From Candidatus Liptonbacteria bacterium (lineage in GTDB: Bacteria; Patescibacteriota; Minisyncoccia; UBA6257; 2-01-FULL-56-20): 64,000 bases of DNA. This document shows, piece after piece, positions 3,748-62,798 of the stretch. The stretch covers positions 541-64,540 of the forward strand of contig JACQKU010000011.1 of assembly GCA_016204335.1 (NCBI GenBank), in the 5' to 3' direction. Position numbers and translations under genes: made by a program. Within the stretch, counting starts at the first letter, position 1. The number at the start of each line of letters is the position of its first letter. Under the pieces are notes generated by a model. That model saw only the letters and a list, made by a program, of their open reading frames with translations, was not told the DNA's origin and made no database searches.

Positions 3748-4170
3748 ATGGTTCCTATAAATTATTTAGCAGTGCTCGTTGCGGCAATCGCGAGCATGGT
3801 ATTGGGATTCTTGTGGTACGAACAGCTGTTCGGAAAATATTGGATGCAGCTTATGGGATTCACTTCGGAATCGATGGCGGAAGCGAAAAAGAAAGGAATG
3901 ACGATGCAATATTCCCTGATGACCGTCGGTTCGCTTGTGATGAGTTACGTGCTTGCCAACGCCGTCATCTTCGGGAGCGCCTACTTAGGGGCAACCGGAA
4001 TAACTGCCGGCATTATGGCCGGATTTTGGAACTGGCTCGGCTTCATCGCGCCGGTGACGCTCGGTTCGGTTATCTGGGAAGGAAATTCATGGAAGCTCTG
4101 GGTTCTCAACAACGGATACTATCTTGTTTCGCTCTCCGTAATGGGAACGATTCTTTCGGTCTGGAAATAA
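3748..4170 (+). CDS. DUF1761-like integral membrane protein
   Basis: 140 aa, 4 predicted TM segments, YEQLFGKYWMQLMGF motif typical of DUF1761. Confidence 0.55.
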   Translation: MVPINYLAVLVAAIASMVLGFLWYEQLFGKYWMQLMGFTSESMAEAKKKGMTMQYSLMTVGSLVMSYVLANAVIFGSAYLGATGITAGIMAGFWNWLGFIAPVTLGSVIWEGNSWKLWVLNNGYYLVSLSVMGTILSVWK

Positions 4171-4703: not shown

Positions 4704-4889
4704 AATTAAATCGCGCCCTTATTTGTCCGGAGGACATAGACAACATCAAGAGCAATCCTGATTTTGTCGGGAAAACCATTTCGCATACTTTCTTATTCGC
4801 GCGCCTGCCAGCCGTAGCGTTCGCGAAGGAGGGAATAAGAAAGTATGAAACTGATAGCGTGTTTCCCAAATAAAATCAGGATTGCCTTT

Positions 4890-6698
4890 CTACCGAATCG
4901 CGTTCCGCAGAATTTTCTTCCGGATGCGGACGCTTTTGGGCGTCACTTCAACGAGTTCGTCCTCGCCGATATATTCGAGCGCCTGCTCCAGAGAAAGCGC
5001 GCGCGGCGGAACAAGGTCGTTGGTCACCGCGTCGGTTTTCGCCCGGAAATTCGTAAGTTGCTTTTGTTTGCAGACATTCACGACAATGTCTTCCGTTTTT
5101 GCGTTTTGTCCCACCACCTGCCCCTCGTAGACTTTTTCCGCCGGACCGATGAACATTATTCCCCTCTCCTGTGTTTTCAAAAGAGCGTACGCGGTGCTGG
5201 CGCCGGCTTCATACGCTACGAGCGAACCGTGGACATTCGCGACCACGGAATCAAACTTCGGAAAATAGCCCGCGAAAAGCGAATTGATGATTCCGGTGCC
5301 ACGGGTTTCGATGATAAATTCCGTCCGGAAACCGATGAGGCCGCGAGTTGAAATGAAAAAGTGGAATGACGCGGCGCCGTTTCCCTGTCCCGAGCCAGTC
5401 GAGGGGTCGACGCTCATATTTTTCAATTCGCCTTTCCGCGCGTTCATTTTCTGGATTACCATTCCGGAATATTCCTCCGGCACTTCAATCCAAACGTCTT
5501 CCGCGGGCTCAAGCGTTTTGCCGTTCTCCTCATGGAAAATAACTTCCGGCCGCGAGACCTGAAGCTCGTATCCTTCGCGCCGCATTTTTTCAATCAAAAT
5601 CGCGAGATGCAATTCACCGCGTCCGCTCACCGTGAATTCATCAGTCGAAATACCTTCTTCCACGCGAAGCGCAACATCGTTGTCGAGCTCTTTAAACAGC
5701 CGCTCGCGGAGATTGCGCGAAGTGCAATATTCCCCTTCCTGTCCCGCGAAAGGAGAATCATTCACCGAAAAAATCATTTTAACGGTCGGTTTTTCTATGG
5801 CTATCGGAGGCAAGGGGTCCGGATGCCCGGCGTCCGCCAGCGTGTCGCCGATGTTCACGTCCGGGATTCCGGCGATTGCAACGATGTCGCCGGCCTGTCC
5901 CGAAGAAACCGCCGCGCGCCCGAGCCCCAAAAAAGTCGTGAGGCCGGTAATTTTATAGTTCTTTGCGGCTCCGCCGTTTGGAATGTGCGCGATTTGCATT
6001 CCGTTTTCCGCCGCGCCGCGCTCGATTCGTCCCACCGCGATTCTTCCCTGATAATTATCGTATTGAATCGAAACCACCATCATTTGAAACGGCGCGCCGC
6101 CCGCCGCTTTCGGGGCGGGAATATGCGCGAGAACCGCGTCAAAAACAGGCATAATATCTTTCATCGAAGCGAGTTCCGGCGAAGTCCCCGCGACTCCCAG
6201 CTTGCCTGATGTGTAAAGAATCGGAAAATTCAATTGTTCGTTTGTCGCGTGGAGCTCCATAAAAAGTTCGATGACTTTTTCGAGCGCGTGATTCACGCGC
6301 GCATTCGGTTTGTCGATTTTATTGATGACCACGACGATTTTGTGTCCGGCATCGAGCGCTTTTTTCAGCACGAAGCGCGTCTGCGGCATCGGCCCTTCTT
6401 GCGCGTCGATGAGGAGAAGCGAACCGTCCGCCATATTGAGAACGCGCTCCACTTCCCCTCCGAAATCCGCGTGTCCGGGCGTATCGATGATATTTATTTT
6501 CGTTTCTTTATAAATCACCGCGGCGTTTTTCGAAAAAATGGTGATTCCGCGCTCCCGTTCAAGTTCGTTCGAATCCATAATAAGCTCGTCGTTCACGAGT
6601 TTTCCGAGCTTGGTCTCGGACTGCTTCAAAAGCGCGTCAACCAGAGTGGATTTCCCATGGTCAACGTGGGCAATAATTGCTATATTTCGAATATTCAT
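4890..6698 (-). CDS. typA: Translational GTPase TypA/BipA
   Basis: 602 aa; [16 protein letters not shown]1 motif, [14 protein letters not shown]; full-length BipA architecture. Confidence 0.9.
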
Positions 6699-6740
6699 AA
6701 ATTTTTGCCATGCCTGCCCGCCGAAGCCTTGGCGTAGGCG

Positions 6741-6781
6741 GGGTCAACGTGGGCAATGATTGCTATATTTCTAATTTCCAT
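6741..6781 (-). repeat. Degenerate duplicate of typA 5' end (start codon plus first ~13 codons), copy 1
   Basis: GGGGTCAACGTGGGCAATGATTGCTATATTTCTAATTTCCAT versus authentic GTCAACGTGGGCAATAATTGCTATATTTCGAATATTCAT at 6659-6698. Confidence 0.7.
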
Positions 6782-6882
6782 GTTGGTATAAGCAAAGCGA
6801 GCGACCTGCCCCGCCGCCAAACAAACGCCCTTGCGTACCGCTCCGCGCGGAAGCGCGTAGAGCGCAGCGTTTGTTTTGGTGC

Positions 6883-6911
6883 GGGGTAATTGCTATATTC
6901 CCAATGTTCAT
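6883..6911 (-). repeat. Degenerate duplicate of typA 5' end, copy 2
   Basis: GGGGTAATTGCTATATTCCCAATGTTCAT resembles typA start region; preceded by GC-rich hairpin CCCCGCCGCCAAACAAACGC...GCGTTTGTTTTGGTGCGGGG (6808-6885). Confidence 0.6.
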
Positions 6912-6941
6912 ATTCTAATTGCGAGTGATGGTTTGTTGATG

Positions 6942-7096
6942 CTTATACTTCAAACCTTATATTTCAAACCTTATATCTTATACTTCAAACCTTATATCTT
7001 ATACTTCAAACCTTATACCTTATACTTCAAACATTATACTTCAAACCTTATATTTCAAACCTTATACTTCAAACCTTATACCTTATACTTCAAACA
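6942..7096. repeat. Tandem repeat array, unit ACTTCAAACCTTATA(T/C)CTTAT with variable 12-21 bp units, about 9 copies
   Basis: Direct reading: cttatacttcaaaccttatatttcaaaccttatatcttatacttcaaacc... contiguous, no spacers. Confidence 0.85.
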
Positions 7097-7111
7097 TTGA
7101 AAATCTTTCTA

Positions 7112-7148
7112 CGCTGTGACGCGTCACAGCGCTATGCCATGGCATAGC
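7112..7148. promoter_or_regulatory. Two abutting perfect palindromes CGCTGTGACGCGTCACAGCG and GCTATGCCATGGCATAGC upstream of typA
   Basis: Self-complementary on inspection; second belongs to the GCTATG...CATAGC motif family seen at 20334, 20526, 21112, 46193. Confidence 0.6.
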
Positions 7149-7610
7149 AGTCGAATTTTCTCGTAAGGGGCGAATCCACGCCTGCGTCCGACTTCGGACG
7201 GGCAGGTGCCTCAGGCACACTATTGCTAGCATATCGGTATTCACAAACAAATGCCGCACTGTTTGGGCGGCGCTTGAGGATAATAGAGGAAAGAGCGAAA
7301 AAAATCAACTTAATTGCGCTCTATCGAAGATGTATTTGCTTGAACTCCTTTCTCTCTGATATTCTCGTACTTCACGCCAAAATAAAACCCAATAAACGGA
7401 AGCGCGACAAAAAGAGCCAGTGCCAGCAATTTCGAATACCACGTCACTTTGTTCCATTCGATTGTCATGGAATTAGTATAACGGATTAAAATTATATTTG
7501 GCAGTGAGCCCTGTTCTCTGCATTTTTATTAAGTTCGACGATCGTCGGGTTTAATAAAATTAAGAGGTGGTGCGATAAGCATATACAATATAGCGCCATC
7601 CAGCGATTTT

Positions 7611-10276: not shown

Positions 10277-10310
10277 AACATTCTAACATTCTGCAGAATG
10301 TTAGAATGTT
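10277..10310. repeat. 34-bp perfect palindrome AACATTCTAACATTCTG|CAGAATGTTAGAATGTT (intergenic copy of the HSNILQNVRM palindromic element)
   Basis: Self-complementary; same core as in-frame copies in purB (26790-26821) and purL (31818-31849); central CTGCAG. Confidence 0.9.
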
Positions 10311-20525: not shown

Positions 20526-20566
20526 CCGCTATGCCATAGCATAGCGGTATGCTATGGCATAGCGGG
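20526..20566. repeat. 41-bp palindromic repeat CCGCTATGCCATAGCATAGCGGTATGCTATGGCATAGCGGG, copy 1 (3' of regulator gene)
   Basis: Identical 41-mer also at 21112-21152; itself an imperfect palindrome built from GCTATG/CATAGC half-sites. Confidence 0.9.
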
Positions 20567-20574
20567 CGGAGAAA

Positions 20575-21093
20575 CTACTGTGGAATTGTAAACGTTCCGT
20601 ATTTTGTCCGCACCCTGCGTCCTGAAAAACCCCTCCCATTTCTCGACGACTGCGGGCCGGGCGAATATATTCTCTTCTTGCGTTCAGTTTTTCCCCGCTC
20701 ATAATAGCTCCTGTACTTTTTTTCGTTCAGCGCTTTTTTTATGCCGCTTATAGTCTGATGAGTAAGCCAAAGCTCTTCGCCGATTTTACGATAGCTCGTT
20801 CCTGCAAGAATGCGATCTATCGCGGCCGCCCGGCGCAGAAGAAGTGAACGCTCTTTGGCGGTAATAAGAAGTTCAAGTGCAGTCGAAAGTTTTTTCGGCT
20901 CTCGCAAAATTGTAAACTTTGCAATCAAAGTCCGCCAGACATTTTCTTCCCACGCTGAACGGGAAGAAAAACTTGCAAGGAGAGGTATACCACGAATCGC
21001 AGCCGCGGCCTCATTATTTCTCAGCTCTATTTTTTCTCCTGTTTTCTTCACGCGATTTTTTCTCCTGTTTTCTTCATCTCCTGTTTTCTTCAT
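20575..21093 (-). CDS. TrpR/YerC-family helix-turn-helix regulator with Lys/Arg-rich N- and C-terminal tails
   Basis: Central TAKERSLLLRRAAAIDRILAGTSYRKIGEELWLTHQTISGIKKAL resembles Trp-repressor/YerC HTH; 5' end contains three tandem copies of GAAAACAGGAG-ATG/GTG (RBS plus start); alternative in-frame GTG start at 21051. Confidence 0.6.
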   Translation of the reverse strand: MKKTGDEENRRKNRVKKTGEKIELRNNEAAAAIRGIPLLASFSSRSAWEENVWRTLIAKFTILREPKKLSTALELLITAKERSLLLRRAAAIDRILAGTSYRKIGEELWLTHQTISGIKKALNEKKYRSYYERGKTERKKRIYSPGPQSSRNGRGFSGRRVRTKYGTFTIPQ

Positions 21094-21111: not shown

Positions 21112-21152
21112 CCGCTATGCCATAGCATAGCGGTATGCTATGGCATAGCGGG
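21112..21152. repeat. 41-bp palindromic repeat, copy 2 (immediately 5' of regulator gene start)
   Basis: Exact match to 20526-20566; ends 19 nt upstream of ATG 21093. Confidence 0.9.
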
Positions 21153-26085: not shown

Positions 26086-27576
26086 CTATAACTCTCCACT
26101 CGCAAGTTTCTCGGCCAATCCGACATAGCTCTCCGGCGTGATTTTAAGGAGTTCTTCTTTTACTTGCGCCGACACATCGAGCCCGTTTATAAACGCCCGC
26201 ATGTCTTCAATCGTTACTGTTTTGCCGCGCGTGAGTACTTTCAGTTTTTCATACGGCATCGCAACGCCCTCGCGCCTTAAAACTGTTTGAATCGCCTCGG
26301 CGATGACTTCCGGATGAAGGTTCAAATCTTCGAGAACTTTTTCTTTGTTCGCTTGGATTCGCCCGAGTCCGTTCAAAAGATTTGCGTAAGCGACAACGGA
26401 ATGCGCGAGCGCAACGCCGAAATTCCGCTCCACCGTCGAATCGGAAAGGTCGCGCTGGAGGCGCGATATAGGCAGTTTCGACGAAAAATAACTAAATAAC
26501 GAATTCGCAATACCTAAATTTCCTTCACTATTTTCGAATTTTATCGGATTTATTTTGTGCGGCATCGTGGATGAGCCGATTTCCCCTTCGTTCGCTTTCT
26601 GCGCAATCCAGCCGTCGCTGATGTAGCGCCAGATATCCTGATTGAAATCAATGAGAATCGTATTTATGCGGCGGAGTAAATCGAAAAGTTCGACGTATGT
26701 GTCGTGCGGTTCGATTTGCGTCGTGAAAAGATTCGGTTCGAGCGTTATGGTTTTTTTTTGATTTTGCGCGGCTCCGCCCGCACCGGACGACATTCTCACA
26801 TTCTGCAGAATGTGAGAATGTTCCCGCAAGCGTGTGACGAAATTTTTCGTGAAATCAAGCCAATCAACTTCAGGATACGCAACAACATTCGCGCTGTAAT
26901 TGCCGGTTGCTCCGTTCAATTTGACGAGAATGCGGAATGAACGCAGTTGCCCGATTTGCCGTTCCAACCGCGCGGCAAAAACCTTGAATTCTTTCCCGAA
27001 TGTCGTAGGAGTCGCCGGCTGGCCGTGCGTCCGCGCGAGCATCGTCAAATTTTTATATTCTTTCGCGAATTCCTCCAATTTCGCGGTTATTTTTTCGAGA
27101 AGCGGCAGAATCACTTTTTCGATTCCGTCGCTCAACATAAGCCCGTAGGCAAGATTATCAATGTCTTCCGAAGTAAGCGCGAAATGAATCCATTCAAGGC
27201 AGTCCTTGAGAGAAGTATTCTCCAACTGGTCGCGCATAAAATATTCTATCGCTTTCACATCGTGGTCCGTGGCTTTGATATTTTTATATCCCGCTCGCTC
27301 GATGTCTTTTATGATTTTTGCATTCTCGAGCGTAAGTTCGGAAAGATTTCGAATCAATGATTTTTCCTCTTCGGAAAAATCGCGGAGGCCTGCCCGCTCA
27401 CCAAAATTTTTGGTGTGAGGGCCGATGTCGGGATGCTCGGACAGCGCGATAAGATATTCCGCTTCGACAAAAAGCCGATAGCGCATCATTCCCGCCTCGC
27501 TGAAAATCTTCGCGAGCGGTTCCGTATATTCCCTATATCGCCCGTCAATCGGGCTTATTGATTCGAGAAAATTCAT
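26086..27576 (-). CDS. purB: Adenylosuccinate lyase carrying an in-frame palindromic-element insertion
   Basis: 496 aa; fumarate-lyase signature GSSTMPHKINPIKFEN; about 24 extra residues (REHSHILQNVRMSSGAGGAAQNQKK) between conserved FVTRL and TTQIEPHD blocks relative to E. coli PurB (from memory). Confidence 0.9.
   Translation of the reverse strand: MNFLESISPIDGRYREYTEPLAKIFSEAGMMRYRLFVEAEYLIALSEHPDIGPHTKNFGERAGLRDFSEEEKSLIRNLSELTLENAKIIKDIERAGYKNIKATDHDVKAIEYFMRDQLENTSLKDCLEWIHFALTSEDIDNLAYGLMLSDGIEKVILPLLEKITAKLEEFAKEYKNLTMLARTHGQPATPTTFGKEFKVFAARLERQIGQLRSFRILVKLNGATGNYSANVVAYPEVDWLDFTKNFVTRLREHSHILQNVRMSSGAGGAAQNQKKTITLEPNLFTTQIEPHDTYVELFDLLRRINTILIDFNQDIWRYISDGWIAQKANEGEIGSSTMPHKINPIKFENSEGNLGIANSLFSYFSSKLPISRLQRDLSDSTVERNFGVALAHSVVAYANLLNGLGRIQANKEKVLEDLNLHPEVIAEAIQTVLRREGVAMPYEKLKVLTRGKTVTIEDMRAFINGLDVSAQVKEELLKITPESYVGLAEKLASGEL
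26790..26821. repeat. 32-bp perfect palindrome ACATTCTCACATTCTG|CAGAATGTGAGAATGT inside purB, in frame (encodes HSHILQNVRM)
   Basis: Self-complementary; differs from copy at 10277 by a compensatory pair (A>C with T>G) that preserves the palindrome. Confidence 0.9.
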
Positions 27577-31386: not shown

Positions 31387-34300
31387 TTAGTAATTCGCAA
31401 ATGTTGATTTGTATGCGGCAAGAATTTCGGGAAGCGGCAGTTTCATATTTTTCTTTTTCCTTCGTATCACGATTTTTTCCTGTTTCACGACCGAGCCGAT
31501 TTTCGCAAAGCTCGTTCCGGTCATTAATTTCTCGAATTTCCGCATATTTTCCGGCGCGACTGTCGCGATAATTCTCCCCTGGCTCTCGGAAAAAAGAGCC
31601 GTAGTGTCATTCGAAAATTTTCCGGGCAGTTTTTTGAGCGATACATCAAACCCGAGTTTTCCTCCCATCGCGGTCTTGCACAACGCGACCGCCAACCCTC
31701 CTTTCGAAACACTGATTGCGGAAGCGACAATCCCTTCGCGGACGCATTTCGAAAACGCCCGATAGAGTTTTCTGTTTTTCGCCGCATCCACGCACGGCAC
31801 CAAACTGTCGCAAAACGACATTCTAACATTCTGCAGAATATTAGAATGTTTTTTGTCGTCTATAAGTGATGCATATTCACTTCCTGCCATCTCGTCGTAC
31901 GTATTACCGAGCGCGTACACCAAATCGCCCGGGCATTTTGCGTCGAGCGATACCGTTTTTTCGGCGTCAGGCACCACGCCGATAGCGGAAATAAGGAGCG
32001 TCGGCGGCACTGAAATTTTTACCGGCTTGCCATCTTCGTCATATCCTTTGAAATCGTTGAACATCGAATCCTTGCCGGAAATGAACGGCGTTTCATAAGC
32101 GACCGCATAGTCGTAACATGCCTGCGCGGCGCGCTTGAGCTGATATAGCCGCTCCGGCTCGTTCGAACTGCACCAGCAAAAATTGTCGAGAAGCGCGATA
32201 TAATCCGGGTCGGCGCCCGCCGCGACAGCGCTCCGAATCGCCGTATCAATCGCGCATGCCGCCATTTTGTACGAATCGATTTCAGAATATGAAGGAGCGG
32301 CGCCGGAAGAAAGAACAATCGCTTTTTTTGAATCCAAAAGCGGCCGCACGGCCGACGCGTCCCCGTTCACTCTGCCTTTGCCCTGGAGCGGCTTCAAAAC
32401 GGAACCTGCCTGCACTTCATGGTCGTATTGCATCGATAAAAATTCGTAACTCGCGATATTCGGGCGCGCAAGCATATTTTTGATTGCGAGCGAAAGGTCG
32501 CGCGATTCTGTTTCAGCCGCTGACATACCAACAAACTCCAGTTTATAAGGATGTGTTTCTTTGGTGGCGAGGTGGCGGCGGGGCCAGCCGTCGTGCAAAA
32601 ACCCCAAATCCAAGTCCATTATTTTCTTTCCGCGATAGTTCACCGCGCACTTTCCCGATGAAGTAAATCTGCCGATAACAGTCGCTTCCACTCCCCGCTT
32701 TTCCAATAGCGAATGAAGCGCCGCCCATTTATTTTTCGGCACGGCGAGCGTCATCCGCTCCTGCGATTCGGAAATCCATATTTGCCACGGCGCGAGTCCC
32801 GGATACTTCAACGGGACTTTATCGAGAGCGACTTCGCATCCGTTCGATTCGCGCGCCATCTCCGCCACCGAACACGAAAGGCCGCCGGCGCCGTTATCCG
32901 TGATGCTGTTATACAATTTTTTATCCCGCGCTTCTTTCACAATCGCGTCGCTCAATTTTTTCTGCGTGATTGGGTCGCCGATTTGCACCGCGGTCGCCGG
33001 GCTTCCCGAATCAATCGCCTCGGAAGAAAATGTCGCTCCGTGAATGCCGTCTTGGCCGACACGGCCTCCGACCATCACGATATAGTCGCCGGGCTTGGCT
33101 TGTTTTTTATGCGACGGTTTTCCGGCCACGGTCCGCGGAATCAAACCGACGGTTCCCGCGAACACGAGCGGTTTTCCGCGATACCTTTTGTCGAACAGCA
33201 TAAATCCCTGCGGCGTCGGAATGCCCGAGCAATTGCCGCCGACATTCACTCCTTGAATTACGCCTTCCATAATGCGCCGCGCCGAGAGAATTTTTTCCTT
33301 CCGTTCCGCGTCGCGGTAAAAAACGCTTTTGTCGCCCGTTCGACCGGGCTCAGGGCGACCCTGAGTGGAATCGAATGGGTCGCGCGGGTCGGCCCCTCGA
33401 CGCGGCTCGGGGCAAGCGAAGCAAAATCCGTAGACATTCGCCACCGGCTTCGCGCCCAAGCCAAACCCGACTGTATCGCGATTCACGCCGAGAATTCCAG
33501 TGATGGCGCCGCCGAACGGGTCAAGCATCGAAGGAGCGTTGTGCGTTTCCACTTTGTGCGTGACGAGATGCTTATCGTCGAACGCAATCGCTCCGGAGTT
33601 GTCGGTGAACACCGAAACGCAGAAATCGCGCCTGCCTTTCTTTTTGCGGATTACATTCGTCGCCGCTTTGATGTAAGAGCGGTAAATTCCGTCTTTTATT
33701 TCATCGATGGGATTCGCGAAAATCGTATGCTTGCAGTGTTCCGACCACGTCTGCGCGAGCGATTCCAGTTCTATGTCGGTCGGCTTCCGCTTTTGACCAC
33801 GGAAATATTCCCTGATTGTTTTCATACTGTCGAGGTCGAGCGCCAACGGGCCGCGGCGGCTTCCGTCCGGATTCGCTATTCCCTCTTTCCCGATGCATGT
33901 TAACTCGCTGTCGTCAACATCAAGGTTTACAGTACCGACCGACACCGACGAAACGAGCGCAACTTTCGGCGCGCTGATTCCCATGCCGCCGTCTTTTTTG
34001 AATTGTTTGAAACTTTTTATCTCCGCGCGCTGAATCAGCGGATTATACAGAGTGTCTGCGACGCGACGCGCGTCCTCTTCCGACAATTTTCCGGAAAGGA
34101 AAAAAACCTGCGAAGAATATGTTCCTTGCCCGCTTTTGAATTTTTTTCCTAAAAAATCCTCGATTGTTTCTTTCGCGGTCGAGCCGATATTGTCGGTGAC
34201 GCCCGGCAAATATCCGACTTCTATCGCCCAGTCGAATTTCGCCGGCGCCTGATTTTGATTTACGGTTGCGCGTTCCACAAGCGGATTCTCCAGAAGCCGC

Positions 34301-42739: not shown

Positions 42740-42744
42740 GTTAA

Positions 42745-42830
42745 AATGCAAATATCAAAATGGAAAATGACAGATAAAAATGTAAAAATTTTGAATTTTA
42801 CATTGTCATTTTGAACTTTGATTTTTAATT
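42745..42830. repeat. AT-rich inverted-repeat intergenic element, family 2 (copy 1 of 3)
   Basis: caaatatcaaaatggaaaatgacagataaaaatgtaaaaa...tttacattgtcattttgaactttgatttttaatttttga; related copies at 56149-56262 and 62685-62798. Confidence 0.7.
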
Positions 42831-43238
42831 TTTGATTTTCTTTATACGTTCTGCAATTTCACGGATTGTTTCTTTCGGCTGATTATCGACCACTGAATGG
42901 ATTGAACCGCCGCCGTCATTTTGAAATCGCGGAATGATATGAATATGAAAATGCTCAATGGTCTGGCCGCTCGCTTTGCCCTGATTGATGCCGATTGTAA
43001 ATCCATCCGGCGCAAGAACCTTCTGCAATAATTTCGTCACATTCCTGACTGCGGAAAAGAGCGGCGCAAGTTCGCCTTCTCCCAAATCAAGAATGGTTTC
43101 GGCGTGTTTCTTCGGCATTACCATGCTGTGCCCAAGGGCAATCGGATGAATATCAAGTATCGCGAACGCGCCGTCATCCTCATAAATGATTTCTGACGGA
43201 ATCTCCTTATTGCCGATTTTGCAAAAGAGGCAGTCCAT
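42825..43238 (-). CDS. HIT-family nucleotide hydrolase
   Basis: Histidine triad HFHIHIIPR. Confidence 0.85.
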   Translation of the reverse strand: MDCLFCKIGNKEIPSEIIYEDDGAFAILDIHPIALGHSMVMPKKHAETILDLGEGELAPLFSAVRNVTKLLQKVLAPDGFTIGINQGKASGQTIEHFHIHIIPRFQNDGGGSIHSVVDNQPKETIREIAERIKKIKN

Positions 43239-43243
43239 AATTT

Positions 43244-43355
43244 TAGAAATTGGTTGTTAGAAAATAGATATTGGTAATGTAAAATGGAAATTAGAAATTA
43301 ATTGATTTTCTATTTTCCAGTTTCTAATTTCTATTACTATTTTCCAATTTCCAAA
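43244..43355. repeat. AT-rich inverted-repeat intergenic element, family 1 (copy 1 of 2)
   Basis: gaaattggttgttagaaaatagatattgg...attttctattactattttccaatttccaa; second copy 54843-54929 with same termini. Confidence 0.7.
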
Positions 43356-50048: not shown

Positions 50049-53000
50049 CTACTGTACCAATCCCACGGCATTAATCGTGATTGTGGAAGTGGCCACGACC
50101 GTCCCGTTGTTGCTCGCCAAAGGATTGTAGGAATAAACATCGCCGCCGAATATGTCCGCCGCCAAGTTGCTTGAAGGATATGTCGCAGTCGGCGTTCCGG
50201 CGCAGGTTGAGTTCCCTGCCCATACTGCAACGCTCCCGCCGCCGGAATCGTAATCGACCGGCACTTGCCCCGAATAAGCGGAGATGTCCAACGTTGAAAG
50301 GGTTCCGCAAGAGATGACCGTGCCGGCGCTGTTCCGAACCGCCCACGAACCGCCTGCCGGCAAGCCGTTCAACGTAATAATCGGCGAGCTGTAAAACGCG
50401 AAATTGTCGTATGTCATAGTGACGCCGCCGGCGGCGGACGATGCCGCAAGCCCCAAAAATCCCGCTTCGGAAAGCGAGAAATCCGCGGTGGAAAGCGCCG
50501 CGCCGCCGTTGACCCACGACTGGAGCGATGTGCCGGAAATATAGCCGCGGAACTGGTAAAAAGTGTCCGCGGCAAATGTAAACGCCGAAGAGATAATCGT
50601 TCCGTATGAAGAGGAAATTGTCTTGCCGATTAATTCCGCGCCGTTTTGGAAATCGCCGCCCGCAATATGATATTTGTTCGCGCCGCTATCCGCGCGCAAA
50701 ACACCGCCGTTTTTTCCCGCGCTTGCTCCAACCGCGCTCGCTTTCATTTTAAACTCAATTACCCCGTTCGTCCGGTTCTGGCCTGCAACGTGAATCTGCG
50801 CCGAAGAACCGGAAGCGGGCGTCACCGCAAGCCGGCTCGCGGAAACGCTCCAGCTTCCCGAATCCGTCGTAAAGGCGCCGGAGGTTGTCGTGAAACCGTT
50901 GCACGTTCCGGAATCCGTGAAAGTATTGAACCCTGCGGGGTCCTTTGCCGAGGCCTTCCAGTAATACGTCGTGTTCTGGCTCAAGGCGTTTTGCGCCGTG
51001 TAAGTCCCCTGCGCGCCAGAAGCGTAGCAGTCGTTCGCGCTCACGCATGTCGCGTTCTGCCCCGACCAGCCGGTTTGCGATACGCTTTGGTCGTTTGTTT
51101 GAAAAACGGCGGTACACGCGGAATTCGAATAAATCGTCACTTTATATTGCAGATTATCCGAATTAATGTCTGTAGCCGTCATTTTAAAAACCGGCAAGAC
51201 GCTTAAGTTTTGCGAGTCGTTTGCTGGAGAGTCCTGTGAAGGCGGGTTCGGCGGGCTGCTTGCCGCGCTGGTCGTCACGCTGGAACTCGCGCTATACGGC
51301 CCGTCGCCGGAAGCGTTCGTGGCGCGTATGCGGTAGTAGTATGTCGTTCCGGGCGCAAGCCCGCTGTCGTTCGTGGAGGTGTTCGTTATGCCGGAGGCGA
51401 TCTGCGCGAAAACCTGGCTCGAAGTGGCTCTTTCGACTTTATACGAAGTTGCGCCTCCGGCAGGCGCGGCCCAGTTTACGGTAAGTGATACCGCGGAAAC
51501 ATTCTCATAGGCGGGAGTTCCCGGAGTTCCAGGCACGGTCATCCCGCTTCCCGCCGCGTTCAATGCCGTCTCAATCAAATCCTGGTTTCTCGATTTAACT
51601 TTGAACGCGTAGGTGGCGTTTGATTGAAGATTTTTTATTTGCAGAGTATCGAGCGTGGCATCCGACATCCAAACGGCCGCCGTGCTCGTAGCTCCGACAG
51701 ATGTCACCCAAAAACCCTGCCAGTTGGGGTCGCTCGGACTCGTCGATGAAGTGAAGACGGCGAACTGGGTTGTGGGAGAAGATGCCGGGTTGCCGTTCTC
51801 GGCGTTTGTGAAATTGAGAGTGGAAGTTGTTGTTAATGAAAAGGTTGCTGTTCCGGGAGTATTGGCAAGCGTGTAGATAGAACTCGAAGCGGAAGCGGTG
51901 CCGGTGTTTGGAGTTGGAGAGACGGAATCCCTCGCCTGAACTTGATAGGCGTAGCACTTGTTGGCTTGTAGATTGGAGTTTGTGTATGAGGTTGAAGTTT
52001 GCCAGTTTGATGACGCTCCTCCTGTGCCGCCGTTCGATGAACAAGTATTAAAAGTGAAAAGATAGTTTACGGGCGTAGTAGAATCGGAGCCGGTTGTGGC
52101 AGTCATGGAAATTGATGATGTGGATGCCGCGGCTGGAGCGGACGAAAAAGTCATCGGGTTCGGAGTTGGAGGAGATGCGTCTAGTGTCGTGAACGAAACC
52201 TCGCCGCCGTATGAATACCCCGCGCTGTTATGCGCGTATGCGCGGGTGTAGTAGGTGGTACTGCCGGTGAGTCCAGTCAGCCCTTTGGTGTATGCCCCTG
52301 CGCCGAAAGCTCCCGCGTCGCTCGCTGAACTCGCGTAGCCAGAGGAACCCGGCGCGACGTTGCCGGGCAAAGCACGCGAGGCGGTATCATAAACAAAACC
52401 TCTTGTATCAGCATTAGCCCCGCCTGTAGCCGTGATGTTGCCGTTGCCAGTCGCGGTTGTTGCGGTGATAGATGAAACGGCTTGGGTCGTGACGGTGGGA
52501 AGATTCGCCAACGTCGTGAACGAAACCTCGCCGCCGTATGAATACCCCGCGCTGTTATGCGCGTATGCGCGGGTGTAGTAGGTGGTTGCGGCATTCATGC
52601 TATTGAGTGTCGCCGTGAAGGCACCTGTCCCAAAATCACCGGCGGTGATAACAACGGACTCATATCCAGAGGAATACGTGGGGACGTTGCCAGGCAAAGC
52701 ATGCGATGTGGTGCTGTAGACAAAGCCGCGCGAATCCGCATTCGCTCCTCCTGTAGCCGTAATGTTACCGTTGCCGGTCGCGGTTGTTGCGGCGATGGAT
52801 GAGGCGGCTTGGGTGGTGACGGTCGGGACGGTGACGGAGACCGTGTAAGTGAGGACGACGCGCCCGGCGGCGCCGGCGCCACCATTAACAGCGAGAGCCG
52901 CGCCCCCGCCACCCCCACCGGGCGCATTTCCTGGCCCGGCGGCACCACCACCGCCAGTCCCACCGCCACCCCCGCCATTTCCTTCTCCTATGCCACCAGT

Positions 53001-54842: not shown

Positions 54843-54929
54843 GAAATTGGTTGTTAGAAAATAGAAATTGGAAATTTGAATTTGGTCAACTATTTTCTAT
54901 TACTATTTTCCAATTTCCAATAACTACTT
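54843..54929. repeat. AT-rich inverted-repeat intergenic element, family 1 (copy 2)
   Basis: Shares 5' GAAATTGGTTGTTAGAAAATAGAAATTGG and 3' TATTTTCTATTACTATTTTCCAATTTCCAA termini with 43244-43355. Confidence 0.7.
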
Positions 54930-54935
54930 TCCACT

Positions 54936-56147
54936 TTAGAATTGACCGGTCAGCTGATAAATCGGCACGATGATGGCAAGCGCGATTACCGCGACCAATA
55001 TACCCATAATGAGAAGGAGGACCGGTTCGAGAAACGAAAGCAAGGAATGTATGCTGGATTCCACGCTTGACTGGTAAAAATCAGCGAGCGTGGAAAGAAC
55101 CTCCTCAAGATGTCCCGCTTTTTCGGAAATGGCGACTAAATTCGTGACGACTTTCGGAAATGCCTCTTCGCGGCGAAACGCCTCTCCGATTGTAAGGCCT
55201 TTTGCCAGGCCTTCGTTCGCGACCCTCATCAAGCTCGTCCGGAATTTTTCCGAACCGACGACTTCCGCGGTAATGGTTGCCACATGAATAATCGGCAGGC
55301 CGGCCGCCATCAGCGCGCTGAATGTGGAAGCAAATCGTTGAATCGCTATGTCCCGGTAAATTTTTCTGACGAGAGGCAAACGGGAAAGCATCTGGCTCAT
55401 AACCCGCCGCCCCGTGGCATTTTTCCAAAAAAAGTAAGTCGCAAACCCGACAACTGAAATCAGAATGGAGGCCAGAACGACAATATTGTCTCCTATAAAA
55501 AGACCGGCGGTGAACACGACTCTTGAAAAAAGCGGCGGCTTTATGTCGGTTTGCAGAAAAGCGGTGGCGATTTTCGGCAGCGCGAACGTAACCAGAAAAC
55601 CGATGATGACAACCGACATCGCCGAAAGAATAATCGGATAGACCAGCGCCGAGCGAATCTTACCTTTTAACTCGGCTTCCCGCTGGAGCGAAACGCTTAA
55701 GTCCTCGAATGTTTGCTGGAGATTGCCGGACGTCTCGGACGCCTTCACCAGATTGATAAACACGACTGAAAATACTTTGGGATGCTCCGCAAAGGTCTGA
55801 TAAAACGGCCTGCCTCTTGTAAGATTTTCCCGTATCTCGAGAAGAAAGGTCTTCATTGCCGGCTTGTCGAAATCGGCTATCAGGATATTGACGGCGGACA
55901 AAAGGTCGGTCCCCACCTTAAGCATCAGAGACAAATACTTGGTCAGGAAAATTTTATCGGTTGTGTTGATGTCTTTGGAGAACCTGCTGCGGGACGTACG
56001 CAGGGGTTTTACCGAAAGCGGACGCATCCCTTTTGCCACGAGGTACTGAAGCGCCTGATTCAGATTGTCAGCCTCCAGCTGGTCTTCCGTGATTTTTCCG
56101 TTTTTGTCGGACGCGGAGTAGTGGTACAACATAAATTTAAAAATCAA
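54936..56147 (-). CDS. pilC: Type IV pilus / T2SS platform protein (PilC/GspF family)
   Basis: 403 aa, two T2SSF domains, 3 TM. Confidence 0.85.
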   Translation of the reverse strand: MIFKFMLYHYSASDKNGKITEDQLEADNLNQALQYLVAKGMRPLSVKPLRTSRSRFSKDINTTDKIFLTKYLSLMLKVGTDLLSAVNILIADFDKPAMKTFLLEIRENLTRGRPFYQTFAEHPKVFSVVFINLVKASETSGNLQQTFEDLSVSLQREAELKGKIRSALVYPIILSAMSVVIIGFLVTFALPKIATAFLQTDIKPPLFSRVVFTAGLFIGDNIVVLASILISVVGFATYFFWKNATGRRVMSQMLSRLPLVRKIYRDIAIQRFASTFSALMAAGLPIIHVATITAEVVGSEKFRTSLMRVANEGLAKGLTIGEAFRREEAFPKVVTNLVAISEKAGHLEEVLSTLADFYQSSVESSIHSLLSFLEPVLLLIMGILVAVIALAIIVPIYQLTGQF

Positions 56148-56148
56148 A

Positions 56149-56262
56149 TATCAAAAATAAAAATGACAAATCAAAATGTAAAGAATTAATTTTACCGTTT
56201 AAGCTTTTTGCATTCCGCTCTTTCATTTTGCATTTTGATTTTTACAGTTTGAATTATTCACG
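56149..56262. repeat. AT-rich inverted-repeat intergenic element, family 2 (copy 2)
   Basis: aaatcaaatatcaaaaataaaaatgacaaatcaaaatgtaaa...cattttgcattttgatttttacagtttga. Confidence 0.7.
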
Positions 56263-57966: not shown

Positions 57967-58272
57967 ATCTTTATGAATCTCTAAACTCTAATCTCTAAAT
58001 CTTAAACAATATCTCCGCCAGAGGCGGATCAGCCTCGGGCTGAAAAACCCAAATCTCAAAAATGTTTTTTAACTTTGAGATTGTTTAGAGATTGGGGTTT
58101 CGAGATTGGAGATTGGCGCTAAGTTAGGGATTAGAGATTTCAAAGCAAGTATAGCAAAAATAGCCGCGCATAACCATATACGAAACGAATGAAAAGAAAG
58201 AAGGAGCGCTACACATGCGCTCCTTCATTCAAAACAGGATAATTAAAATCAGGTCTGTTTTTTCAACCGCAT

Positions 58273-58869: not shown

Positions 58870-58870
58870 T

Positions 58871-58936
58871 TTTTTATGGTTTATGACCTTTTATTTATGG
58901 TTTAGGACCTTTATTTTTTATGGTTTATGACCTTTA
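58871..58936. promoter_or_regulatory. Three tandem 21-22 bp direct repeats (TTTATGGTTTATGACCTTTTA) immediately upstream of pilA
   Basis: tttttatggtttatgacctttta / tttatggtttaggaccttta / ttttttatggtttatgaccttta; about 2 helical-turn spacing. Confidence 0.6.
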
Positions 58937-59234: not shown

Positions 59235-60002
59235 TTACACAAAATCGTCAGGCGGTTCAACTTCGAGCTTAAAGCGCCGGCCTTCTTCGGTGGAAAACTC
59301 CAAAGAACCGGCATGGAGCATCAGGCGTTTGGCAAAGGCAGGCCTGCCCGCCGAAGCATTTGTGAAGGCGGGCTGGTTTTTGGAACCATAGAGCATGTCT
59401 CCGACAACAGGATGTCCGATGGACGCGAGATGCACCCTGATTTGATGTGTTCGTCCGGTTTCAGGAAAAACTTCGAGAAGAGAAAAAATTTCTCCGTCCG
59501 TGTCTTTCAAGGTTTTTTTCACGGCATACCGCGTAATCGCCTGTTTTGCCGTTTTCCCTGAAAACGTGGTTCTTTTCACGGAATTTTTCTTCCTTCTGAT
59601 TTCCTTGTCAATCACGCCGGTTTTTTCTTTAAATTCTCCGTGAACGAGTGCGATGTAGGTTTTTTTAATCTGCCGCTTTTTAAAAAGCGACTTCAGATAT
59701 TCGAAGGAATTCTGGTTTTTTGCGGCAAGCAGAATTCCGGAGGTTTCTCTGTCCAGCCGATGGACAATGCCGGGTCGAATTTCCGGTTCATCGCCGACGT
59801 TCTTCATCTCCGGATATTTTTTCAAAAGCCAGTCGGTCAAAATCGCGGACTCACGCGGACTAGGCGCGGAACTGCGCTGAAAATTGTCTGCGTCTGTCTG
59901 CGTTCTGTCTGCGTTTGTCCGCGCCGGATGCGTCAGCATTCCCGCTGGCTTATAAACCGCAGCGAAGTTTTCATCCTCATAAATAATCTTCGGTTCTTCC
60001 AT
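59235..60002 (-). CDS. RluA-family 23S rRNA/tRNA pseudouridine synthase
   Basis: HRLDRETSGILLAAKN catalytic-Asp motif; start placed at MEEPKIIYEDENF to match family N-terminus and avoid overlap with rseP; upstream in-frame extension contains 10-11 bp tandem repeats. Confidence 0.8.
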   Translation of the reverse strand: MEEPKIIYEDENFAAVYKPAGMLTHPARTNADRTQTDADNFQRSSAPSPRESAILTDWLLKKYPEMKNVGDEPEIRPGIVHRLDRETSGILLAAKNQNSFEYLKSLFKKRQIKKTYIALVHGEFKEKTGVIDKEIRRKKNSVKRTTFSGKTAKQAITRYAVKKTLKDTDGEIFSLLEVFPETGRTHQIRVHLASIGHPVVGDMLYGSKNQPAFTNASAGRPAFAKRLMLHAGSLEFSTEEGRRFKLEVEPPDDFV

Positions 60003-60058
60003 AATAACTGCTTTATCGGCGCGTATCCGCGTTTCATCAGCGTTAATCCGCGTATTGT

Positions 60059-61108: not shown

Positions 61109-61261
61109 GCACGGTTGATTTTACATCAACGAATAACGAATCGCAAACGAATGAACGAATTCGTAAATTCTCCGCCAGAGGCGCCTGCCCGTCCGAAGTC
61201 GGACGCGGGCGGGGGTCCGCCTTCGGAGAAGAAATAAATTCACTATTCGCCGATTAATCGC

Positions 61262-62693: not shown

Positions 62694-62798
62694 ATATCAA
62701 AAATAAAAATGACAAATCAAAATGTAAAAATGAATTTTATCGTTTGGGCTTTTTGCATTTTACATTTTCATTTTGCACTTTGATTTTTACAGTTTGAT
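62685..62798. repeat. AT-rich inverted-repeat intergenic element, family 2 (copy 3)
   Basis: aaaatcaaatatcaaaaataaaaatgacaaatcaaaatgtaaaaatg...cattttgcactttgatttttacagtttga; near-identical 5' arm to copy at 56149. Confidence 0.7.

Follow-up and report, generated by a model that had tools for sequence, protein, structure and literature searches.

A typA leader probably built from stem-loop insertions and displaced gene starts in Candidatus Liptonbacteria

Introduction

Yeast mitochondria harbour mobile GC clusters, and Magnusiomyces has its 'byp' elements; both are GC-rich hairpins of 30–50 nt in an AT-richer organellar genome, found in coding regions as well and sometimes nested or in tandem. 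The byps of Magnusiomyces are skipped by the ribosome. At prophage attachment sites, such as those of e14 or phage 21 in icd and of Rac at the 5' end of E. coli ttcA, the insert brings a substitute gene end, the native end is left as a pseudo-copy and the protein is slightly altered (PMC6379469). Rickettsia palindromic elements and other MITEs are small palindromic repeats located in coding genes, often in frame (PMC10969869). REP sequences and REPINs are imperfect palindromes of 20–40 nt with a short conserved tag, and are mobilised by RAYT transposases, which are IS200/IS605-like (PMC3733652).

Here we describe the region upstream of typA in a 64,000-nt stretch of DNA from Candidatus Liptonbacteria (the window). 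By our analysis, this locus appears to combine two of these known kinds of event, namely the presence of palindromic mini-elements within genes and the replacement of gene ends where an element has inserted. We consider it probable that the 610 nt between an ancestral promoter and leader (7253–7308) and the working start (6698) consist of relics accreted from stem-loop hits and replacement starts, rather than forming a designed leader, and that the unit most likely recombined between lineages.

Organization of the typA leader

The product of typA matches, at 100%, a protein named TypA in a metagenome-assembled genome labelled as Liptonbacteria, while exact-sequence look-ups of the window's TypA retrieved no protein record. 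Codon comparison identifies the first ∼19 codons of the working gene as an AT-rich 'replacement' version of the gene start. Among all window ORFs of at least 100 residues, typA alone has relic copies of its own start upstream; a 28-nt gene-start probe matched the start copies only and gave no match in 100 shuffled sequences. The gene and the features up to the outermost clear relic are as follows.

4890–6698, minus strand: working typA gene from the ORF listing, encoding the 602-residue translational GTPase TypA/BipA; the working start copy is 6659–6698
6699–6711, minus strand: junction 2, AT GGC AAA AAT TT
6712–6741, minus strand: stem-loop H2, CCGCCTACGCCAAGGCTTCGGCGGGCAGGC, 30 nt
6742–6781, minus strand: relic copy 2 of the typA start, ATG GAA ATT AGA ... 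GTT GAC C, translating as a 13-residue peptide
6782–6804, minus strand: junction 1, TC GCT CGC, then TTTGCTTATACCAAC before the ATG of copy 2
6805–6886, minus strand: stem-loop H1, outer stem CCCCGCACC...GGCGGCGGGG followed by CAGG, with further hairpins nested in the loop
6887–6911, minus strand: relic copy 3 of the typA start, ATG AAC ATT GGG AAT ATA GCA ATT A, translating as MNIGNIAI

Relic copy 2 is 90% identical to the working start over 40 nt. Relic copy 3, which is truncated and carries an R to G change, is about 84% identical over 25 nt. All three start copies in the window are of the AT-rich replacement type and are 84–94% alike; therefore, some local duplication or gene conversion must also be part of the history. 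The copies are spaced by 43 nt (H2) and 105 nt (H1), with no ORF in between. Copy 2 and H2 together form a 28-codon upstream ORF (6695–6781), the TGA of which overlaps the working ATG (ATGA), and a side-effect on translation through this stop/start overlap is possible. Copy 3 opens a 46-codon ORF (6771–6911) that terminates 8 nt inside copy 2. A protein search with a 41-residue relic ORF returned the relic ORF of one relative (L203) as its sole match, and gene callers therefore seldom report such ORFs.

H1 and H2 belong to one family, defined by a CCCGCC...GGCGGG stem and then CAGG. H2 is located in frame between the AHVD and HGK codons (P-loop) of relic copy 2, without target duplication. This stem-loop, lying between copy 2 and the gene, was missed in the first-pass annotation. 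H1, with outer arms at 6809–6828 and 6867–6886 and a folding energy of −44 kcal/mol (z = −2.0), is inserted after codon 8 of relic copy 3 (ATT A^TC GCC). Gene-derived codons resume past each hairpin (GAC C-H2-AT GGC AAA and ATT A-H1-TC GCT CGC), which places each hairpin within the old copy rather than at the junction. In junction 2, relic copy 2 continues past H2 (H G K codons) and is followed by a new A/U-rich start context, while TC GCT CGC in junction 1 represents the continuing (I)AH codons of copy 3. The old frame resumes for 8–10 nt after each stem-loop, and a new ATG and fresh first codons follow. Each insertion is paired with a replacement gene start. In both units the hairpin is only 8–13 nt away from the duplication junction, and this closeness may point to a coupled mechanism. 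We reject the idea that the repeated starts stem from a long target-site duplication, since the gene-derived codons continue after each hairpin.

Further upstream, the region contains repeats, palindromes and a promoter.

6912–6941, minus strand: spacer with a promoter-like match, TCAACA-16-TAGAAT (a consensus match only), abutting the ATG of copy 3
6942–7096, minus strand: tandem array of nine 14-nt units, GTTTGAAGTATAAG, and four 7-nt half-units, RTATAAG
7113–7148, no strand assigned: two abutting perfect 18-nt palindromes, GCTGTGACGCGTCACAGC (7113–7130) and GCTATGCCATGGCATAGC (7131–7148), of the family GCTATG-N6-CATAGC
7180–7218, no strand assigned: third GC stem-loop, CCTGCCCGTCCGAAGTCGGACGCAGGC (7180–7206), and a small palindrome, GTGCCTCAGGCAC (7206–7218)
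7214–7244, minus strand: possible oldest, decayed relic of the typA start, GTGAATACCGATATGCTAGCAATAGTGTGCC (tentative)
7253–7308, minus strand: ancestral-type typA promoter and 5' leader, from a promoter scan and alignment with L207, L210, L204, L004, L209 and L081

The ancestral-type block comprises a predicted promoter at 7280–7308 (TTGATT-17-TATTAT) and a leader stem-loop, GCGCCGC...GCGGC, at 7253–7273, followed by a T-rich run. It was absent from the earlier feature list. In alignments with insertion-free relatives, the same block directly abuts the typA ATG. With the ancestral promoter and leader placed here, all the DNA from this block down to 6699 can therefore be regarded as accreted leader. 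The candidate relic at 7214–7244 directly follows the ancestral leader; when its alignment with a typical native start is read by eye, some 23 of 33 positions agree and one 4-nt gap is needed.

The tandem array has a period of 14 (10.5 copies), as well as periods of 7 and 21, and holds 13 −10-like hexamers. Its counterpart in L081 is a single unit, GTTTGGCATATAAT, with flank homology of 23/30 as read by eye. The array thus appears to have arisen by amplification of a −10-like promoter box, of which the nearest relative has a single copy; the copy number of this 155-nt array is specific to the window and rests on one assembly. The two palindromes fold at −20.6 kcal/mol (z = −3.1), and L081 has two palindromes in the equivalent place with symmetric base changes. 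The third stem-loop belongs to the H1/H2 family, in the opposite orientation, and recurs inverted at 61184–61210 (26 of 27 bases identical, 0 expected by chance). L081 carries a different GC hairpin, GATCCGCCTCTGGCGGA, at this position.

The first-pass annotation had reported degenerate duplicates of the typA start, a long GC-rich hairpin between them, a tandem array, two abutting perfect palindromes and a GC-rich hairpin recurring in inverted form. All of these are present, with the boundaries of the duplicates, the long hairpin, the palindromes and the recurring hairpin corrected to those given above. What it had called a palindrome cluster is likewise real, and further members of the palindrome family are found in the window at 20528, 20546, 21114, 21132 and 46199. 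The window also encodes a Trp-repressor-like protein at 20575–21093. Its description of the region as scars of repeated recombination or insertion was essentially right, except that these were placed next to typA, and the insertions lie inside the old frame (at codon 8/9, and between AHVD and HGK).

No Rfam match was found, either across the whole window at gathering thresholds or in 6600–7350 at E≤1, and the ORF listing contains no long ORF between 6699 and 7310. A tRNA/tmRNA scan found none, and thus the site is not a tRNA-linked integration site. A search of a plasmid collection matched the conserved typA start only. Two other explanations were rejected on the sequence itself: a diversity-generating retroelement, given that the copy differences are not adenine-specific and that no long ORF is present at 6699–7310, and a −1 frameshift that would join the relic ORF to typA.

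Comparison with related genomes

Both insertion sites recur in seven independent assemblies of related Patescibacteria. The H2 site (GAC C^AY GGN) is occupied in L081/L082 (TypA 90% identical), L001 and L203 (82%), by an identical element at an identical site, and junction 2 is also found in L081, L001 and L203. Around H2, the window and L081 agree at all of 64 nt, though the genes are 84% identical. L203 also carries a nested 33-nt insert, in frame. The H1 site (ATY A^TC GCC) is occupied in L206 (73%), L208 (80%) and L209; these share the outer stem, while the loop content differs in each. Homologues of junction 1 are present in L206 (TCGCCCAC TTTACTTATACCGAT) and L209. A distant relative, L015, has a weak, hairpin-less partial duplicate of the start, which we judged to be borderline chance.

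Two pairs of close relatives, with typA nucleotide identities of 90–92%, differ solely by the presence or absence of the unit. The typA genes of L001 (with H2) and L207 (without) are 90.8% identical, and synteny extends to the genes downstream. The empty site of L207 reads GAC CAC GGC AAA; set against it, L001 has 30 nt cleanly inserted between two C bases. At 31 of 33 bases (94%), the L001 relic agrees with the working start of L207, whereas the working start of L001 is about 72% identical to it over codons 2–19, with 13 synonymous differences, and resembles that of L203; from codon 20 on, the two genes are nearly identical. In the second pair, L209 (with H1) and L210 (without) have typA genes that are 92% identical and the same upstream genes. 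The L209 relic equals the L210 start except for 3 bases, while the new start of L209 has Gln in place of Asp-Ser at codons 2–3 and ∼8 synonymous changes in the next ten codons, after which the sequences are identical.

Relic and working copies within L081, L001, L203 and L206 differ by 7–11 nt with 0–1 amino-acid changes, a pattern that random substitutions equalled in at most 1 of 5000 trials per case. Since these differences are almost all synonymous, both copies must have diverged as working genes. This pattern, like the anatomy of the leader, the shared sites and the filled and empty pairs, is read directly from the sequences. The pairs, together with new starts that differ almost entirely at synonymous sites, therefore indicate that the unit was gained, or less likely lost, by recombination. 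Gain is preferred to loss on grounds of parsimony, from just these two pairs; in principle, an 'empty' allele could also be restored if the element were excised precisely and the tandem copies recombined.

The H2-type element outside typA

In metagenomes, an exact 29-mer of the element has sharp ends and occurs in no fewer than 111 distinct, unrelated contexts. Of these 111 copies, 110 have C as the flanking base on one side and 87 have it on the other; beyond ±1 the flanks are otherwise random, with a GC content ranging from 33 to 69%. The 30-nt length is common to every copy of the element and is not specific to typA. Among copies with enough flank, 38 of 93 lie in long open frames. The 64-kb window contains one exact copy and one variant. 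The element is absent from 2.9 million viral contigs, and our literature search on the motif string, or on such repeats in the Candidate Phyla Radiation, returned nothing relevant. Related mini-insertions occur in frame in typA of the window and of its relatives, and are read through; in-frame inserts are also present in an RluA-like gene of the window genome and relatives. A sharply bounded 30-nt element thus occurs in many unrelated environmental genomes, and we found no description of it. In practical terms, it inflates gene predictions with peptides such as PAYAKASAGR and RLRQGFGGQ.

Proposed history of the leader and alternative explanations

In the history that we consider probable, GC-rich stem-loops would have inserted at least twice in the first 40 nt of the typA frame, without target duplication. 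At the H2 site in the P-loop codons, between AHVD and HGK, the ten extra residues are expected to disable the GTPase. Each element would have been followed by a junction, a new ATG and a fresh set of first codons (10–19), synonymously recoded; TypA would stay intact through translation from the most downstream ATG, and the displaced starts would persist as short upstream ORFs. The unit of stem-loop, junction and replacement start most likely moved from one diverged lineage to another through homologous recombination within the conserved P-loop DNA, with the native start of the recipient turning into a relic. The first ∼55 nt of typA show an 85–90% match to typA of Listeria, Bacillus and Staphylococcus, and this strong conservation makes the flanks unusually good recombination substrates. 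Further upstream, the −10-like promoter box would have been amplified in tandem, and the dispersed-family palindromes and another stem-loop of the same family occupy positions that have equivalents in the nearest relative. We infer the order of these events, recombination as the means of spreading and any effect on expression from the arrangement of the sequences.

The first-pass annotation had also suggested a decoy-start leader. As a selected function, this would mean that the relic starts serve as upstream ORFs or decoys tuning typA translation, for example by re-initiation at ATGA, and that the stem-loops replace the ancestral 5' hairpin, which normally lies ∼12 nt before the start. The ATGA overlap in the window and L081 would fit such a role, as would the in-frame lengths of H2 (30 nt) and the nested L203 insert (33 nt), and the relic peptides that are unchanged despite many nucleotide differences. 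All seven relic copies with a 5' end in the sequence keep the ATG and a frame open through the hairpin, and a GC hairpin and 13–23 A/U-rich nt stand ahead of every new start, mimicking the layout of hairpin, U-rich run and ATG in insertion-free relatives. However, many relatives lack relics, including the close relatives L207, L210, L204 and L205, and the ends of the relic ORFs vary by lineage: in the H1 type, the stop falls 8 nt into the next start (window, L206) or about 25–40 nt short of it (L208, L209). In all four H2 carriers, which share one origin, the relic ORF ends at or just inside the typA start. The lengths of H1 are not multiples of three, the 30-nt length of H2 is a property of the element itself, and recent acquisition, as seen in the filled and empty pairs, accounts for the intact relic codons. 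We therefore regard a selected regulatory leader as unlikely. Intact codons could also reflect old duplications inherited vertically, with the relic peptide under purifying selection and L207 and L210 empty by secondary loss. The grouping of the units (the window with L081, L001 with L203) agrees with the gene tree, the junction is identical in all H2 carriers, which implies a single origin of the unit, and orthologous relics differ synonymously only (L081u versus L203u: 9 nt, no amino-acid differences). Yet the near-identity of the L001 relic to the L207 working start, compared with ∼72% for L001's own working start, is that expected of recent descent from a working sequence; loss would require a precise excision of the hairpin and a second deletion; copy 3 of the window is truncated and altered; and we know of no plausible role for a 13-residue β-strand peptide. 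Vertical inheritance is thus very unlikely.

Faster than neutral spread would be expected if the unit were selfish. A nuclease encoded elsewhere could cut the conserved, uninterrupted typA start, with repair from a filled allele copying in the stem-loop, by which the target in the relic would be destroyed, together with a synonymously recoded and hence immune start. In the gene tree, two sites in a highly conserved coding stretch were hit in several clades with empty nearest relatives, short donor-derived tracts flank the element (about 36–57 nt downstream), as in co-conversion, and the replacement start differs from the native one at almost every synonymous P-loop site. Gene tables, on the other hand, list no nuclease gene beside typA in the window or its relatives, the viral contigs did not contain the element, and plain transformation with recombination in conserved DNA can yield an identical pattern; such homing is, in our estimate, decidedly unlikely. 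A broader proposal, that C-CCGCCTACGCC-RRG-GCTTCGGCGGGCAGG-C (30–31 nt) is an undescribed ultra-small mobile element which at typA forms part of a self-rescuing selfish unit with a recoded spare start, breaking the best conserved coding DNA of this translational GTPase and invading naive alleles in a homing-like manner and possibly nuclease-assisted, is speculative and quite unlikely. If true, it would represent homing without an intron or intein. Finally, the ribosome might start at the relic ATG and hop over the hairpin to a matching GAC, as in bypassing of phage T4 gene 60: by eye, a GAC precedes H2, the working copy supplies the GAC/GAT that comes next in the window and L081, and the hairpin begins immediately past the potential take-off codon. 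But this codon is followed by CCC and not by a stop codon, a GAT that is out of frame comes earlier in the gap of L001 and L203, and a downstream copy with its own ATG and conserved codons would be needless for a coding gap. An assembly artefact, such as a collapse of the duplicates and hairpins, conflicts with the recurrence of the same architecture in independent ENA, JGI and NCBI assemblies from different projects. Bypassing and artefact are both extremely improbable.

Accretion of relics by insertion and restart, the reading that we favour, would mean that a conserved gene can survive hits by mini-elements where extra residues are not tolerated, the damaged start being abandoned and a spare used, with the insert left in place. 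Two or more cycles of hit and restart, perhaps three or four, would then be stacked in a single leader as a record that can be measured. The filled and empty pairs suggest transfer of the unit between lineages that differ by 17–25% in DNA, with homology provided by conserved coding stretches, which bears on the extent to which recombination links populations of Patescibacteria. For annotation, the first ATG that matches a conserved N-terminus is not always the true start.

Comparison with known systems

One close parallel is e14 in icd. In both cases a substitute gene end comes with the insert and leaves the gene intact, and the displaced native end differs mainly synonymously. Unlike at e14, the start copies at typA are only 43–105 nt apart, with no integrase and no kilobases of element DNA; the units lack an att core at both ends, the hairpin is located within the relic and not at the junction, and their spread appears to have occurred via ordinary homology. 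As with the Rickettsia palindromic elements, the window genome and its relatives have in-frame inserts in typA and the RluA-like gene. However, the element at typA is about 30 nt long, compared to about 150 bp, and has neither terminal inverted repeats nor a target duplication; moreover, H2 is not read through in the working protein and is found in the discarded 28-codon relic ORF.

REP/REPIN sequences resemble H2 in several respects, as this is a 30-nt imperfect palindrome with a CAGG tag at the 3' side of the stem and no target duplication, and new copies of the element insert into the loops of hairpins already present, as would suit a single-stranded target. Unlike REP/REPIN sequences, it has no GTAG/CGTC tag in the canonical place, although GTAG is present on the complementary strand at the loop/stem border (GCGTAGGCGGG), and it occurs at 1–2 copies per 64 kb, often within genes, in flanks of widely varying GC content and not in one species. 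No RAYT gene was noticed, the Pfam scan having covered four ORFs of the window. Whereas the byps are skipped by the ribosome, the interrupted copy of typA is abandoned and a new start is used. The typA units share with homing introns, inteins and endonuclease genes a fixed site in conserved coding DNA, presence or absence among close relatives and short flanking donor tracts. They differ from these homing elements in lacking a nuclease ORF, both within the unit and next to it (in the window and in the relatives' gene tables), and in involving no splicing; here, it is the duplicated start that preserves function.

Organization of the typA upstream region

The typA gene is a 602-codon ORF at 4890–6698 on the minus strand. 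Its product matches at 100% identity a protein called translational GTPase TypA in a Liptonbacteria-labelled metagenome-assembled genome, and its nearest relatives come without exception from Patescibacteria. The degenerate duplicates of the gene start reported in the first-pass annotation were recovered: the 40 nt at 6659–6698 recur at 6742–6781 (90% identity) and, over 25 nt, at 6887–6911. A 28-nt gene-start probe found no further sites in the window and no matches in 100 shuffles. The long hairpin (6805–6886), the tandem array (6942–7096, period 14/7/21), the two abutting perfect palindromes of 18 nt (7113–7130 and 7131–7148) and the inverted recurrence of a GC hairpin (7180–7206, again at 61184–61210) are likewise present. 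A 30-nt stem-loop at 6712–6741 had been overlooked, as had the further features of the locus as far upstream as 7308.

Features upstream of typA, listed in gene direction
7308–7280, minus: promoter-like TTGATT-17-TATTAT (promoter scan)
7273–7253, minus: GC stem-loop, then T-rich run
7244–7214, minus: possible decayed typA start (tentative)
7218–7180: GC hairpins
7113–7148: palindrome pair, downstream of the GC hairpins
6942–7096, minus: tandem array, nine GTTTGAAGTATAAG units and four RTATAAG half-units
6887–6911, minus: relic copy 3, ATG AAC ATT GGG AAT ATA GCA ATT A
6805–6886, minus: stem-loop H1, CCCCGCACC...GGCGGCGGGG, then CAGG
between H1 and relic copy 2, minus: junction TC GCT CGC TTTGCTTATACCAAC
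6742–6781, minus: relic copy 2, ATG GAA ATT AGA AAT ATA GCA ATC ATT GCC CAC GTT GAC C
6712–6741, minus: stem-loop H2, CCGCCTACGCCAAGGCTTCGGCGGGCAGGC
between H2 and the working ATG, minus: junction AT GGC AAA AAT TT
from 6698, minus: working typA start, ATG AAT ATT CGA...

The interrupted frame continues past each stem-loop, with TC GCT CGC reading (I)AH after H1 and AT GGC AAA reading HGK after H2. Thus, each stem-loop interrupts an old copy of the gene start rather than separating two repeats. H2 (30 nt) is in frame within the P-loop codons (AHVD/HGKS). The relic ORFs comprise 46 and 28 codons, and the stop of the 28-codon ORF overlaps the working start as ATGA.

The stem-loop as a dispersed family

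At least 120 metagenome contigs contain the exact H2 29-mer when any three loop bases are allowed. It is preceded by C in 110 of 111 distinct contexts and followed by C in 87, and the remaining flank positions are random, marking the element as a discrete unit with sharp ends. The flanks vary in GC content from 33 to 69%, and about one-third of the copies lie in long open frames. The element was not found in 2.9 million viral contigs, it has no match in Rfam, and a literature search returned no paper with the motif or a description of the unit. As a 30–31-nt unit, C-CCGCCTACGCC-RRG-GCTTCGGCGGGCAGG-C, it is seen sharp-ended in at least 111 unrelated metagenome contexts (loci L083–L202; window 6712–6741), frequently between tandem heptamer arrays or beside similar 30-nt units.

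Comparison of empty with filled typA starts places the element between two C bases, without duplication. Newer hairpins are nested in the loops of older ones (L203, H1 of the window, L206, L208 and L209), and these sequences hint at a single-stranded target for insertion.

Shared insertion sites in related typA loci

The typA loci (L-numbers) came from two sources, a species-representative genome collection and assemblies with close TypA homologues; nine relatives were informative, and their relationships were read from a quick neighbour-joining tree computed from TypA itself. H2 is found with an identical junction at the identical site in L081/L082 (TypA 90% identical; two independent assemblies), L001 and L203 (82%), the last with an additional 33-nt hairpin nested in the H2 loop. 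H1 follows the corresponding codon in L206 (73%), L208 (80%) and L209, which have the outer stem and CAGG tail in common and a different loop content in each. Neither element is present in L204, L205, L207, L210 and L002–L004.

In these insertion-free loci, a sigma-70-like promoter is followed by a GC stem-loop and then by a U-rich run of ∼12 nt that abuts the ATG. Block 7253–7308 of the window aligns with their promoter and leader, so the ∼550 nt between this block and the working ATG are accreted. The corresponding block of L081 lies ∼210 nt upstream of its start. The same compact order, with the GC stem-loop at the likely mRNA 5′ end, is common to insertion-free Patescibacteria (L004, L006–L009, L204, L207 and L210; compare window 7253–7308), and no Shine-Dalgarno sequence is present in these leaders; the compact leader looks like a 5′ stabiliser or attenuator. 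A weak partial start duplicate lacking a hairpin was observed in L015, a distant relative (3960–4010; TypA 56% identical), reading ATACGCAAAGTGGCGATT, then TAAGGAACTAT, then ATG, and is borderline chance considering the number of loci scanned.

Probable acquisition of the unit by recombination

The relic and working copies of L081, L001, L203 and L206 differ by 7–11 nucleotides and 0–1 amino acids, a synonymous bias that random substitutions reproduce in at most 1/5000 trials per pair; both copies must therefore have diverged as working genes. Two pairs of filled and empty loci account for this. L001 (H2) and L207 (empty) have 90.8% identical typA genes and downstream synteny. The start of L207 is uninterrupted, and the L001 relic matches it at 31/33 positions, whereas working codons 2–19 of L001 carry 13 synonymous differences from L207 and are L203-like; beyond codon 19 the two genes are nearly identical. 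L209 (H1) and L210 (empty) share 92% identity as well as their upstream genes. The L209 relic equals the L210 start except for 3 bases, and its new start has Gln in place of Asp-Ser and ∼8 synonymous differences over the following ten codons, with identity thereafter. The simplest reading of these alignments is that a unit consisting of stem-loop, junction and replacement start enters a naive typA allele by homologous recombination, which would leave the recipient's own start behind as the relic. It is possible that the empty alleles arose by loss of the unit instead; however, loss requires two events, precise excision and then recombination between tandem copies.

Gain by recombination agrees with three other observations. 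All replacement starts share AT-rich codons (ATT CGA AAT ATA GCR ATT ATT GCT CAT GTN GAC CAT GGG), from which native starts and relics differ in codon choice. A 64-nt block around H2 is identical in the window and L081, whose typA genes are 84% identical. The typA start matches Firmicutes typA DNA at 85–90%, a conservation through which homology for recombination persists across diverged lineages. In the window, all three start copies are of the replacement type, and the history behind this can be reconstructed only tentatively.

Present-day expression and alternative explanations

TypA is probably translated from ATG 6698. Transcription from the old promoter may give a leader of ∼580 nt with three short ORFs or, alternatively, may begin at promoter-like sites closer to the gene; ribosomes terminating at the ATGA overlap could be handed on to the typA start. 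A GC hairpin and 13–23 A/U-rich nt come before every new start, similar to the layout of the native leader.

An arrangement of this kind might itself have been selected as a decoy or upstream-ORF leader, which we consider rather unlikely. A duplication that is old and vertically inherited, its relic peptide being kept by selection, is in our estimation improbable, and a nuclease-driven homing process only slightly less so. Readings rejected on the evidence are assembly error, duplication of a long target, translational bypass and a diversity-generating retroelement.

Tandem array, palindromes and other repeats

The array's left flank, together with its first unit, corresponds to one L081 segment (GGATTTCCATTGTTTGGCATATAATCATCA versus AGATTTTCAATGTTTGAAGTATAAGCATCA, 23/30 by eye), indicating a lineage-specific amplification of a −10-like box; in L081, the TATAAT of this segment precedes the relic ATG by 6 nt. 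Spacings of 14 and 21 nt within the array give no canonical −35/−10 pairs. Arrays built on heptamers are common in this genome, as they are beside the stem-loop in other contigs.

The upstream palindrome pair belongs to a family GCTATG-N6-CATAGC. Identical double 18-nt copies (20526–20566 and 21112–21152) bracket a Trp-repressor-like gene (20575–21093, minus strand; Pfam E = 2e-5, just under the curated cut-off), whose start ATGAAGAAAACAGGAG is present three times in frame (21013–21092). At the same position upstream of typA, L081 carries a pair of palindromes with symmetric base changes, which favors selection for, or generation of, palindromy itself. One guess is that these palindromes serve as operators.

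Several further repeats were observed in the window. Three tandem 22–23-nt units (TAAAGGTCATAAACCATAAAAAA, gene direction) at 58870–58935 lie directly upstream of a minus-strand start codon (58869) and form another duplicated start region. Long AT-rich inverted repeats of heptamer-like units occupy intergenic positions 56139–56252, 62679–62800, 42743–42833, 43237–43351, 54844–54937 and 57976–58116; two are near-identical, and the last has GC hairpins (CCGCCAGAGGCGGATC...) in its centre. One perfect palindrome, AACATTCTAACATTCTG/CAGAATGTTAGAATGTT, is found at three positions (10277–10310, 26790–26821 and 31813–31854), with slight variations. At 52186–52828, a 327-nt unit is present twice in tandem (77% identity overall, first 74 nt identical; local GC 55–56%).

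Inserts within and near coding regions

The window TypA contains a private in-frame 24-nt insert, CCCCTCGACTGGCTCGGGACAGGG (PSTGSGQG; 5383–5406, minus strand), which is found in 0/10 aligned relatives and ends in an ...ACAGG tail, as in the stem-loop family. At EVIF^KEE, further in-frame inserts are found in relatives: a 153-nt MITE-like insert (MVRQGRSAEPFGGELRAEPLSRSPHHPG...) at codons ∼388–440 of L209, lacking in L210 (genes 92% identical), and different inserts in the relatives P0028, P0036 and P0039. A stem-loop variant, GCCCGCCTTCACAAATGCTTCGGCGGGCAGG (59343–59375, minus strand), lies in frame within ORF 59235–60140 (minus strand), which we take from recognised motifs to be an RluA-type pseudouridine synthase look-alike, and is translated as ...NQPAFTNASAGRPAFAKR...; this ORF has further odd low-complexity stretches, RINADETRIRADK and RTNADRTQTDADN. 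The gap between convergent genes on the downstream side of typA holds AT-rich inverted arms (CATACTTTCTTATTC and GAATAAGAAAGTATG; 4783–4847) that enclose a GC-rich core with CCTGCC, an arrangement resembling a bidirectional terminator in which a further GC element forms the centre.

Comparison with known systems

The typA stem-loops resemble the GC clusters of yeast mitochondria. The closest system is that of prophage attachment sites with gene-end replacement, exemplified by e14 (in icd) and Rac (in ttcA) (PMC6379469). The gene-inserted palindromic mini-elements known as RPEs come next (PMC10969869), and end-tagged REP elements are another near match (PMC3733652). However, prophage gene-end replacement is defined by an integrase and homing systems by a nuclease ORF, neither of which accompanies the typA unit; the stem-loops have neither the TIR nor the TSD of mini-elements and lack the GTAG tag that defines REP. 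Because it fails a defining feature of each, the typA case is best regarded as a new variation that joins known types and is a member of none.
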